Position numbers and translations under genes: made by a program. A stretch of 64,000 nucleotides of DNA from a phage. Under the pieces are notes generated by a model. It made no database searches, was not told the DNA's origin, and saw nothing but the letters and a program-made list of their open reading frames with translations. Of the stretch, positions 9,215 to 46,324 are shown in pieces. The stretch lies in assembly GCA_036930585.1 (NCBI GenBank), contig GCA_036930585.1_3066.1. One strand, given 5' to 3'. Each line of letters opens with the position of its first letter. Positions within the stretch are counted from its first letter, which is position 1.

Positions 9215-9652
9215 TTAATCATGTGTCCACACCCCATCGGTATTTGACCAAAGCCGCTGATTATCTGATCCTCGCCACAGCTTTTTGGTCGGAAGATTTT
9301 TCTCATACTTCCCATCAATAATAACATCAACATATTTAAGCATTTCTAGCTGTTTAATATCTTCAAACTTATATCCTGTCCACAACCAAATGTCTTTCTC
9401 AGGAAATCTTGCTTTAACCCAAGAAACTAAATTTGAAATCTCTTCTCGGTTCTGTGGATAAAGCGGGTCACCACCGGTTAAGGTAAGGCCTTGGATATAT
9501 GATTTGCTTAAATGGGACGCAAGTTCTTTAACGGTATTCATAGTGAATAACTGTCCGTTACGAGCATTCCAAGTACTACGATTATAACAACCTTCGCATT
9601 TATGCAAACAACCTGTAACGAAAAGAACGGTCCTGCATCCAGGGCCATTCAC
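9215..9652 (-). CDS. nrdG: anaerobic RNR activating enzyme NrdG (radical SAM), no ATG or SD, in-frame TAG just upstream
   Basis: VNGPGC...CLHKCEGCYN motif; track start is GTG at 9652. Confidence 0.75.
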   Translation of the reverse strand: MNGPGCRTVLFVTGCLHKCEGCYNRSTWNARNGQLFTMNTVKELASHLSKSYIQGLTLTGGDPLYPQNREEISNLVSWVKARFPEKDIWLWTGYKFEDIKQLEMLKYVDVIIDGKYEKNLPTKKLWRGSDNQRLWSNTDGVWTHD

Positions 9653-9716
9653 AAAGCAGCACGGGATTGTCTACTAGAGAGGTTCCCCGTTTAGACCGGT
9701 TTTACATGAGCCTGAA

Positions 9717-10263
9717 TTAAATTAACTCATACGCCTGGAATGCATCGTATACATCTTTTTCTGTTTTAGATTGGGCATAATTCAATGCATCAGCGATTTG
9801 CCATTTTTCTGCGTCCTCAATATGTTTTGCGTAGGTACGTTTAACATAAGGAGAAAGTACTTTATCTACATTCGCAAAAGTCGTTCCGCCGTATTGGTGA
9901 GAAGCAACCTGTGCAGTAATTTGTGCCATAATTGCAGTAGCAACACCGATTGATTTAGGAGTTTCAATCTGTGCATTACCAAGCTTAAATCCGTTTTCAA
10001 GCATTCCTTTTAAATCTACTAAACAACAATTAGTAAATGGCAATGATATACTGTAATCTAAATCATGGAAATGAATAATTCCGCTTTCATGCGCTTTCAT
10101 AATAAAAGACGGGACCATATTTTTGGCAATGTGTTTAGACACAATACCAGGCCATAAGGTCCCGTTGAGTTGGAAAAACACGAGAATCTTTATTAGCATT
10201 CTCGTTTAAAAGGTCTTTATTAGTTTTATGAATCAATCCTTCAATTTCTTTTTCAATTGTCAT
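9717..10263 (-). pseudogene. nrdD: nrdD remnant: N-terminal ~165 codons of class III RNR, with a frameshift near 10146-10153 and premature stop at 9717
   Basis: ATG at 10263 opens MTIEKEIEGLIHKTNKDLLNE...; NrdD-like sequence continues in another frame (GIVSKHIAKNMVPSFIMKAHESGIIHFHDLDY...). Confidence 0.75.
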
Positions 10264-28108: not shown

Positions 28109-28410
28109 TAGTATTTTTCCTCTGGTTGGAACACAGCACGACAAGCCCACATACTGGCTTCTTTGAGTTTCGTTTTAGCAATAGCTAACTGATCGAGGCT
28201 TTCAGCATAATTCTTCGCGAGTTCAAAGTCTTCGCAATTATCTAGTGCTTCCCAGAATTCATCATATAAAGCATCAAAGATAAGTCCTAAACGAACTTCA
28301 GCGTCTTTAATAGCATTTACTTTACCGATTTTTTCGTCGGTATGTGGCTTATAACCTTTAATATCTTCAATCATATTTGACTTCCTCACCAGTACATAAA
28401 TCGTATTCAA
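28108..28410 (-). CDS. hypothetical protein
   Basis: 100-aa ORF. Confidence 0.45.
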
Positions 28411-28588
28411 CTAAACGAATAGGTTCATGAATGCCATATCCTTGAACAGAAATTTCTGTCGTAGGATAAATTCCACTAATATCACCCATATTCCACGCTT
28501 CATTAAATTGCTGTTCGCCTGAATTACTAAACCATTCTGCGAAAGCATTTAACACATCTTTAGAACCTTCAATAATTATCTTTGCCAT
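28367..28588 (-). CDS. hypothetical protein
   Basis: 73-aa ORF. Confidence 0.45.
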   Translation of the reverse strand: MAKIIIEGSKDVLNAFAEWFSNSGEQQFNEAWNMGDISGIYPTTEISVQGYGIHEPIRLVEYDLCTGEEVKYD

Positions 28589-28949
28589 TACAAGCTCTCA
28601 GTAAAGGTACGAGCGATAACGTCGCGCTGCTGTTCCGGAGTCAGAGAGTTAAAGCGAACTGCATAACCGGATACACGGATGGTCAGCTGCGGATATTTTT
28701 CCGGATGCTTAACTGCATCTTCCAGAGTTTCACGACGCAGAACGTTAACGTTCAGGTGTTGACCACCTTCAATTTTAACTGTAGGCTGTGGTTCAATTTC
28801 AATTTCACGGGCATGCAAACCGTAGAAAATTTCTGGGTCTACAAAAGAGTCCTCTTTAAAGGTTTAGAAACAATAATTCGTGCTTGAATACCATCTTCAA
28901 AATAAATAGTACCTTTATGTGTGCCTTCAAGAATTTGATATGCTTTCAT
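28588..28949 (-). pseudogene. glycyl-radical cofactor gene (GrcA/YfiD-like, T4 Y06I-like) interrupted by a -1 frameshift in a T-run near 28855
   Basis: C-terminal ~60 aa [29 protein letters not shown] glycyl-radical motif; N-terminal 36-codon ORF from ATG 28949 is in a different frame. Confidence 0.7.
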
Positions 28950-29824: not shown

Positions 29825-30002
29825 TTAGTTTCTCTTTTAGGTTGGGCCATTCCGTGGCACATGAATTGTCCATTTCTGTATTTACCCATTACCGCACTTG
29901 GGCACGACCTTATTACAGGTTGGCGGGAATCCCTCATAGAATCATGAGGTCCAGGTTGTTCCCATTTTATTTGAATGTAAATAGGCCTAAGTATAGGCCT
30001 TA

Positions 30003-30581
30003 TTAATTACCGCGGGCCGCATTAGCGACGGCGTAAGCGTACTGAACATTAGCGTCTTTAAACGTACCTTTAGAGGTATCTATTTCTGCCTTAAAGCCAC
30101 CTTTAGCCATAACATCGGCAAATTCTTTACGGAAAGCCATTGCATCAAGACCTTTCCATGATGATTTATGCTTGGCAAATTCAAGACCAGCGTAGTTGAC
30201 AGCTTTAGCTAATTTATTATCAATAACCCATTTACCGGCTTTAGGCACAAACTTCGGGCCTTTTTGTTTAGAGAACAGTTTTAAATTCCAGCGACGAAGA
30301 TCACTGTCGGCTTTAACAAAAGCTGCATCTAAGTTACTAGCAACAACATCTTCAATATGAGCAAATTTGAGTCCGTCAACTTCAATATTTAGATCGTTAC
30401 GCCAGCGAAGTCCTTCCCAAGCAAAGGCTTTAAAATCAGAAGCCTTTGTAGCTAAGTACCGTTCAATAGGAGCAGTTTTAGGGTCAAAGCCGTTTCCGCC
30501 ACGATAAGTCCACTCGTCCTTATTAATGCCTTGAGCTTTTCCTGCAAAGGCCTCGGCGATAAATTCTTTATACGTTTTCAT
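30003..30581 (-). CDS. ipIII: internal protein III-like (capsid-targeted)
   Basis: 192 aa; N-terminal MKTYKEFIAEA capsid targeting sequence; adjacent to e. Confidence 0.8.
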   Translation of the reverse strand: MKTYKEFIAEAFAGKAQGINKDEWTYRGGNGFDPKTAPIERYLATKASDFKAFAWEGLRWRNDLNIEVDGLKFAHIEDVVASNLDAAFVKADSDLRRWNLKLFSKQKGPKFVPKAGKWVIDNKLAKAVNYAGLEFAKHKSSWKGLDAMAFRKEFADVMAKGGFKAEIDTSKGTFKDANVQYAYAVANAARGN

Positions 30582-30670
30582 TTTTGTTTCCTTTAAATAT
30601 TTTAATTGGTAATTGTCTATTCAAGTAATTGTGAATATACTATCACAATTCTAGGAGAAAGTAAATAACT

Positions 30671-45460: not shown

Positions 45461-46324
45461 ATGAAGAAATCCAAAACCATACAATTCCGTTACATTTATA
45501 AATCAACAGTAACCAACCCAAAGGGGTTGGTTCGAATATATATAGGAAAGCATGAATCCAGATATTTTAATCTAGAGGATGATAATTACGTAGGAAGCGG
45601 GGATTATATACAAAAGATTAAAAACAAACCAGGCTATGCTATAGATTTCGAAATTATCGAATTCGTTTCAACACTCGATGTTTTAAATGAAAGAGAAAAA
45701 TTTTGGATATCTGAATATAGAAAAACGGGCCAGTGTGTTAATATAAAAGACGGTGGAGATGGATTTTCTTCAAACGATTTAAAACGAATGTGGTCTAATC
45801 CTGAGTATCGAGAAACTCAACTTAAAGCTTTGGCAAAAGGAAAATCTACAAAAGAATTTTCAGAAAAAATTTCAAAAATTAATAAACTTAGATGTTCGGA
45901 ATCGGAATATCGAAAGAAAATGAGTAATGCGATGAAAACTGCTTTTGAAAATGATCCCACATTAAAAATTCGTATTTCTAATACTGTCAAATCTTTATGG
46001 AAATCCGATGAATATAGAAACAAATTAATTAATCATCCAGGAAAAATAGAAGGAACGAAAAAATCCTGGAATAATCCTTTAATAAGAAAATCAAGATTAG
46101 ATACTAGAAATAAAAAACTAAGATCAGTTGAACCTTGGATTAGTATTGAAAAAGTCAAAAAACTTTGGGAGGATTTGGGAAAACCTCATCCGCAGAAATA
46201 TAAATGGTTTAGAGAAAAAGCAATTGAACATAATCTACCGGATGTAAGTTATAACGCAATTTTAAAAGCATTGAAAAAATGTGATTATAAATTTACACCA
46301 TTGGAGAATTCAATAATTGGCTAA
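45461..46324 (+). CDS. GIY-YIG homing endonuclease (Seg-like) with C-terminal NUMOD-type repeats
   Basis: RYIYK...RIYIGKH...NEREKFWISEY (compare I-TevI ERENFWIKEL); repeated NPEYRETQL / SESEYRKKM / KSDEYRNKL. Confidence 0.85.
   Translation: MKKSKTIQFRYIYKSTVTNPKGLVRIYIGKHESRYFNLEDDNYVGSGDYIQKIKNKPGYAIDFEIIEFVSTLDVLNEREKFWISEYRKTGQCVNIKDGGDGFSSNDLKRMWSNPEYRETQLKALAKGKSTKEFSEKISKINKLRCSESEYRKKMSNAMKTAFENDPTLKIRISNTVKSLWKSDEYRNKLINHPGKIEGTKKSWNNPLIRKSRLDTRNKKLRSVEPWISIEKVKKLWEDLGKPHPQKYKWFREKAIEHNLPDVSYNAILKALKKCDYKFTPLENSIIG

Follow-up and report, generated by a model that had tools for sequence, protein, structure and literature searches.

The vs.6 gene of a T4-type phage, which encodes a homologue of the glycyl radical cofactor GrcA (YfiD), is a mosaic: its 3′ half is nearly identical to the grcA gene of E. 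coli, whereas its 5′ half is of an AT-rich phage type. In the phage described here the gene has also lost one base and is predicted to be inactive, and the nrdD and nrdG genes of the same phage are damaged as well. The DNA analysed, referred to as the window, is a stretch of 64,000 nt from a T4-type phage (Tequatrovirus) whose nearest published genomes are ~97% identical. The explanation that fits best, and that is considered probable as a whole, combines a mosaic vs.6, a genuine A4 to A3 inactivation and relaxed selection on an anaerobic module. It should be noted that the vs.6 gene and its biochemical role are already known and are textbook T4 material, and that the frameshift allele represents a minor variant. 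The modestly interesting parts are the joint decay with nrdD and nrdG and the pattern of host tracking.

Identity and layout of the vs.6 locus

Positions 28588-28949 of the window (minus strand) represent the Tequatrovirus/T4 gene vs.6 (Y06I, GrcA/YfiD-like). The length is 362 nt instead of the 363 nt expected, and an intact 363-nt vs.6 ORF is present in T4, fFiEco06 and UTI-E4. The locus lies between vs.7 and vs.5 and is syntenic, with 98% identity, with the genes annotated as GrcA or vs.6 in these three phages. Matches to vs.6 at 95-99% are found in 492 phage records. The record of phage ESh34, which is unannotated and labelled “UNVERIFIED”, carries no feature under its vs.6 match.

The features of the locus, together with those of the nrdD-nrdG region, are listed in Table 1. 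The coordinates, reading frames and peptides of vs.6 that were given in a preliminary description of the locus were all reproduced. That description also regarded the gene as the T4 Y06I/vs.6 homologue of GrcA, an assignment borne out by the synteny, by the RefSeq annotation of T4 and by the TIGR04365 and 6owr matches described below. Residues 1-29 encoded by the 5′ fragment agree with T4 Vs.6. In the downstream frame (28588..28863), TTG 28818 is the sole in-frame start listed.

Table 1. Positions of vs.6-associated and nrdD/nrdG-associated features in the window.
Feature	Position	Strand	Description
vs.6 5′ fragment	28839..28949	-	ATG at 28949; 36 codons (MKAYQ...SKPLKRTLL); premature TAG at 28841-28839
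vs.6 downstream frame	28588..28863	-	Vs.6 residues 30-120 and stop; ends ...TFTESL; contains glycyl-radical motif RVSGYAV
TTTAAAG heptamer	28854..28860	-	gene positions 90-96; phase U_UUA_AAG of the 0 frame, set by the deletion
grcA-like segment	28588..28772	-	183/185 nt (98.9%) identical to E. coli grcA nt 200-384; 48.6% G+C
vs.5, intact	28367..28588	-	start overlaps vs.6 stop (TAATG)
nrdD exon-1 remnant	9727..10263	-	~179 of 605 codons; 1-nt G insertion at ~10151; NrdD family matches
Putative 5′ end of nrdD intron	9658..9726	-	~69 nt that align to T4 sequence directly downstream of nrdD exon 1; taken as the start of a group I intron of T4 type
nrdG remnant	9215..9652	-	first ~8-10 codons and start gone; radical-SAM cysteine motif kept

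The T4 protein Vs.6/Y06I (NP_049730, autonomous glycyl radical cofactor GrcA) shares with the window copy the locus between vs.7 and vs.5 and the length class. The window copy differs in being one A short in an A4 run and in being truncated after 36 codons. A further difference is at residue 73, which is His in T4 and Arg in the window copy, as in E. coli.

Membership in the GrcA family

The family tested was that of the GrcA/YfiD autonomous glycyl radical cofactors (TIGR04365, IPR011140). With the frame restored, the 120-aa Vs.6 of the window scores 153.3 bits against TIGR04365 GrcA, with residues 20-120 aligned; this is below the equivalog cut-off of 170 bits, although RefSeq names the T4 protein GrcA. 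The Pfam Gly_radical domain, encoded at 28588-28772, is detected with a score of 66.8 bits (cut-off, 22.2). A phmmer search matched the restored protein to GrcA of PDB entry 6owr, an NMR entry, with an E value of 9e-42 (query residues 22-120 to 6owr residues 28-127). The similarity is not confined to the radical domain, as the N-terminal region displays 14/40 identities (35%) with the N-terminus of E. coli GrcA (BLASTP, E 5e-6). However, the window copy as it stands is not the single ORF of a ~14 kDa GrcA, but a 36-codon ORF and a separate downstream frame.

Two known bacterial proteins are also close points of comparison. E. coli GrcA (YfiD, 6owr) has the same C-terminal 61 residues (GrcA residues 67-127), encoded by the segment that is the same at 183 of its 185 nt, but is 127 aa long, compared with 120 aa in the phage, and has an N-terminal part with ~35% identity over 40 residues. 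The C-terminal glycyl-radical domain of PflB (PDB 1h16 and others) also aligns, with Vs.6 residues 58-120 corresponding to PflB residues 697-759, including the RVSGYAV loop. PflB is an 85-kDa enzyme, whereas Vs.6 is a stand-alone protein of 14 kDa. At the nucleotide level vs.6 is nearer to grcA than to pflB, and the best place of alignment is grcA in every E. coli genome searched.

The one-base deletion

In alignments with T4, fFiEco06 and UTI-E4, the base that the window lacks is found to be an A. These three phages have a run of four A residues (A4), which is reduced to three (A3) in the window at 28863-28865 (minus strand), with the alignment gap placed at window position 28863 against both references. 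The T4 sequence is TCT AAA ACC TTT AAA GAG (SKTFKE), and that of the window is TCTAAACCTTTAAAGAG. The preliminary description had located the lesion in a nearby T run. One base added there (e.g., a T at 28858-28860) does restore the frame, but the actual site is the A run. Its view of the gene as a pseudogene-type allele is upheld, as the 1-nt deletion truncates vs.6 after 36 codons. The allele is thus predicted to be inactive, or at best very leaky.

The A3 allele is rare. Neither of the A3 backgrounds tested is matched exactly and at full length in any of 488 T4-type INPHARED genomes, and each row among the matches listed spans 73 nt, i.e., the A4 form. A 45-mer containing A3 has no exact match in IMG/VR, and there is no exact match to the A3 allele in JGI metagenomes when a GTT/GTC variant is allowed.

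The lesion consists of one base in a homopolymer, and an error of sequencing or assembly, whereby the phage would in truth have A4 and an intact vs.6 of 120 codons, must be considered. The absence of A3 from all 488 published genomes is in keeping with such an error. However, the exact 36-aa truncated product is also called on a Logan contig of run ERR7569065, a contig recorded in two samples. This carrier is a different phage from an unrelated run: its flanks are 92-96% identical, denV is present, there are other SNPs inside vs.6, and its nearest relatives are the “slur” phages (98.8%). The 36-aa product is also found on a Logan contig of SRR28171614 that matches the window at 100% along 5602 bp, and the frameshift and the deletion in nrdD recur in this run. 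The contig is from the same phage, and the run is possibly the window's own source data and hence not an independent observation; reads shared with the window would be compatible with an error.

The state of the remaining genes also bears on the question. When 106 UTI-E4 coding sequences were mapped onto the window, 101 were found at full length in a single frame. The damaged ones are nrdD, nrdG and vs.6 only, while denV and e.2 are without a counterpart, which represents gene-content variation. No frameshift was found in the ~104 other genes, though T4-type genomes are rich in longer A/T runs, and vs.6 makes up ~0.6% of the coding sequence. The only other frameshift is in the already dead nrdD and is outside any homopolymer run. 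The other 1-nt indels that are shared against both references fall between genes, as far as checked with the UTI-E4 and T4 gene tables, a distribution that real mutations would be expected to show after filtering by selection. In addition, a run of four A residues is not error-prone on short-read platforms. Thus, since a second phage in another run carries the same deletion, since ~104 other genes are intact, and since the run has only four bases, the vs.6 frameshift is judged to be genuine, and the sequencing error that the preliminary description had left as an alternative is very unlikely.

Both of the Logan contigs that carry the frameshift (L087 and L088) end at window position 28743, 30 nt into the segment identical to E. 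coli. Ends at this position are expected if reads of the host grcA in the same library branch the k=31 assembly graph. The 185 host-identical nt appear to break k-mer assemblies at the edge of the segment, a practical warning for the assembly of phage genomes from mixed samples.

A natural vs.6 knock-out allele is carried by no fewer than two different phages, and one of these is also without nrdD/nrdG. Such an allele offers a ready comparison for determining what a spare glycyl-radical part gives the phage in low-oxygen infection.

Possible residual expression of the frameshifted gene

The A3 deletion places the TTTAAAG heptamer in a slippery phase, and a −1 slip at U_UUA_AAG restores the Vs.6 frame, with a predicted 120-aa product that reads SKPLKED instead of SKTFKED (TF to PL). 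Either a slip at this site (28860-28854), five nt past the deletion, or reinitiation at TTG 28818 could make the allele leaky, and leakiness could explain the persistence of the A3 deletion in more than one phage. The phase of the heptamer is the one needed for an exact restoration of the frame, and its sequence belongs to the X_XXA_AAG class, the most shift-prone in E. coli (PMC4066793). However, U_UUA_AAG is outside the three best heptamers of that study, and the best ones yield ~0.3% without stimulators and at most ~3.7% with an optimal 3′ context (PMC4066793). Folding of 111 nt against shuffled sequences revealed no significant downstream structure (z = -0.15), and no Shine-Dalgarno-like element was seen upstream of the heptamer. 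The arrangement is absent from the 488 relatives and hence is not a conserved programmed site. As for reinitiation, the 76-aa ORF from TTG 28818 holds the entire domain that matches GrcA and PFL, but no Shine-Dalgarno sequence was seen before this codon.

Programmed −1 frameshifting was thus discarded as the main reading, the slippery heptamer being in phase but accompanied by neither a stimulator nor conservation. A leaky allele is unlikely overall; residual Vs.6 expression is possible but would be minor, and inactivation by the A3 deletion remains the preferred reading.

Host origin of the 3′ half of vs.6

The near-identity of the 3′ 185 nt to grcA is constant, at 98.9% (183/185) in 5426/5426 complete E. 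coli genomes. In G+C content the segment stands at 48.6%, compared with 33.9% for the 5′ part of the gene and 34.9% for the whole window, in agreement with the earlier estimate of ~50% against AT-rich flanks. Only 0.7% of 185-nt intervals in the window are equally G+C-rich, and the richest ones are in the tRNA cluster. Within a core of 176 nt, the window copy is 99.4% identical to E. coli grcA, 94.9% to that of E. albertii and 86.9% to a Klebsiella-like grcA. Because the core is nearer to E. coli than to either of the others, the donor of the segment is taken to be E. coli in the strict sense. The same core is 98.9% identical to that of T4, a lower value than the 99.4% shared with E. coli grcA.

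In most other phage lineages the similarity to the host gene is much lower. The grcA-like genes on contigs of distant T4-like, T5-sized and jumbo phages are mostly 70-83% identical to E. coli grcA, the exceptions being the IMG/VR contigs L010 and L011 (~90%) and Klebsiella phage KPV15 (87%). The host origin of the 3′ half, as previously suggested, is well supported by the difference between these values and the 98.9% of the window.

The preliminary description further proposed that a host-derived radical-domain module was captured recently by this phage and fused to an unrelated phage N-terminus. Such a capture would be expected to leave a segment nearly identical to E. coli grcA and a sharp step in G+C content, both of which are seen. 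However, the host-like segment is also present, at 97-99%, in T4 and in four of the IMG/VR Tequatrovirus contigs aligned, and its left alignment boundary is the same in all of them. The 5′ half cannot be regarded as an unrelated partner, as it is itself a diverged GrcA N-terminus (35% over 40 residues). Moreover, the homologues that distant T4-like phages carry at this place are of full length and diverged to a uniform extent, which points to a replacement inside an existing phage grcA and not to a fusion. A recent, phage-specific capture is therefore highly improbable. Since the segment and its left boundary are common to T4 and the aligned Tequatrovirus contigs, the replacement of the phage allele by that of the host is taken to predate the T4 group and is old relative to the phage of the window.

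The course of events proposed for this replacement is as follows. The 5′ ~180 nt would be the old, AT-rich phage version of grcA, and the 3′ ~176-185 nt would have been overwritten through homologous recombination with the chromosomal grcA of E. coli, in the common ancestor of the T4 group or earlier. As a result, the radical domain of Vs.6 is the same as that of the host, and this identity may ensure recognition by the host proteins PflA and PflB, a plausible rationale for the replacement. The vs.6 mosaic provides a neat, compact instance of a strictly lytic phage recombining with the chromosome of its host.

Several phage contigs show other arrangements. In L010 and L011 (IMG/VR, ~121 kb), Vs.6 is 94% identical to that of T4, and the host-like stretch is 231 nt long with 90-91% identity to E. 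coli grcA; this stretch may represent an older or a differently bounded replacement. In L041 and L042 (IMG/VR, ~85 and 152 kb), which are AT-rich phage contigs, the 3′ halves of grcA-like genes have their best match in Pasteurellaceae grcA (86.9%), and in these Pasteurellaceae-like copies the frame is interrupted by a stop codon near the 5′ end. Genes resembling grcA are also found in many phage contigs of 104-122 kb (T5-sized) and of 345-357 kb (jumbo).

A similar mosaic in Klebsiella phage KPV15

The vs.6 homologue of Klebsiella phage KPV15 (Jiaodavirus; L032, 1501-1862) resembles the window copy in having a phage-type 5′ half, a high-G+C, host-like 3′ half and a 1-nt frameshift. Its G+C content is 56.2% in the 3′ half and 35.6% in the 5′ half. 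The difference is that the 3′ half matches a Klebsiella-like grcA and not that of E. coli. A 41-mer from the 3′ half has an exact match in 23 bacterial contigs from gut metagenomes; these are up to 620 kb in length, have ~57% G+C and encode a full 127-aa GrcA. They are termed Klebsiella-like on the basis of their G+C content and source.

Over the 3′ 176 nt, KPV15 is 96.0% identical to the Klebsiella-like bacterial grcA and 86.4% to E. coli grcA. The 3′ segments of the window and KPV15 are 86.9% identical, close to the 87.5% found between the E. coli and Klebsiella-like host genes. The 5′ parts of the two phage genes show 72.5% identity to each other, compared with ~50% between either of them and the hosts. 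Thus in two phage genera the 3′ half appears to follow the host and the 5′ half the phage, as judged from these alignments, and the 3′ half of KPV15 looks like an independent host-allele replacement in another phage genus.

A more general proposal is that phage grcA is kept matched to the host by repeated homologous replacement of its 3′ radical-domain half with the host allele. This is put forward tentatively, with the odds slightly against it. If true, host tracking would mean that selection favours an exact match to the host PflA/PflB. No description of a host-following 3′ half of phage grcA was found in the accessible literature on grcA/yfiD and T4-like phages.

Damage to nrdD and nrdG

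The window does not encode a full-length NrdD with a C-terminal glycyl-radical domain or a complete NrdG, the components of a class III reductase. The nrdD gene is frameshifted and about two thirds of it is deleted, and nrdG lacks its start, in line with the compromised state reported for both in the preliminary description. The sequence at 9658..9726 has no match in the nrdD gene of UTI-E4, which is free of introns, and is taken, from its alignment to T4, as the 5′ end of a T4-type group I intron. Lost in the deletion are the remainder of the intron, exon 2, which encodes the radical glycine, and the start of nrdG, a gene that resumes at about codon 9; TIGR02491 aligns to the nrdG remnant only from profile position 11. 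The junction is at ~9655-9658 and displays a short homology, roughly ATCC.TGC as read by eye. This junction is absent from the published genomes searched (INPHARED). As nrdD, nrdG and vs.6 are all damaged, the earlier statement that no glycyl-radical gene of the window has escaped damage holds.

Function of Vs.6 and proposed decay of the anaerobic module

Pyruvate formate-lyase (PFL) is the cell's source of formate. Class III ribonucleotide reductases use formate as the reductant, and in the case of T4 NrdD a site for formate has been discussed (PMC4493059). In both T4 Y06I and E. coli YfiD the radical is installed by PFL activase (Wagner et al. 2001, as cited in PMC8683613). According to the same source, the radical-bearing Y06I or YfiD binds oxygen-cleaved pyruvate formate-lyase and restores its activity, as found in vitro for Y06I (PMC8683613).

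By analogy, an intact 120-aa Vs.6 would be activated by the host PFL activase and would replace the oxygen-cleaved C-terminus of the host PFL. A path from Vs.6 to PFL, to formate and to NrdD is conceivable from this biochemistry, which suggests that vs.6 serves the same anaerobic dNTP-supply module as nrdD/nrdG, with formate from PFL being used by the phage class III reductase. In the phage of the window, selection on this module may have been relaxed. If NrdD/NrdG were lost, or if the phage were propagated only in air, keeping PFL alive would no longer pay and vs.6 would decay. It should be noted that the joint loss of vs.6, nrdD and nrdG is one observation in one phage, and searches of IMG/VR and of JGI metagenomes found no long contig that joins the A3 form of vs.6 to nrdD.

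Two other genomes were considered as further cases of joint loss and were set aside. KPV15 has a frameshifted vs.6 and an nrdG annotated in two pieces, but its nrdD is intact; its record also has many other small split ORFs and looks error-rich, and its vs.6 frameshift may be a sequencing error. OL964745, the laboratory “Mutant T4 clone T4_7t1”, has lost vs.3 to vs.8 entirely and nrdD for the most part. Being a laboratory mutant, it is not a natural case, and shows only that nrdD and vs.3-vs.8 are dispensable in laboratory culture.

Other differences in the window

Two further regions of the window differ from related phages. In the region 29825-30670, denV and ipII are absent, and e.2 is also without a counterpart. 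A 192-aa ORF (30003-30581) is found there between vs.8 and the lysozyme gene e; it carries an IpIII-like tag in Logan and has no Pfam match. At 45461-46324 there is ~0.9 kb of extra sequence between gene 5 and gene 5.1 relative to T4 and UTI-E4. It contains a 287-aa ORF with no Pfam match, in which a GIY-YIG-like motif can be discerned by eye, and which is possibly a seg-type homing endonuclease.
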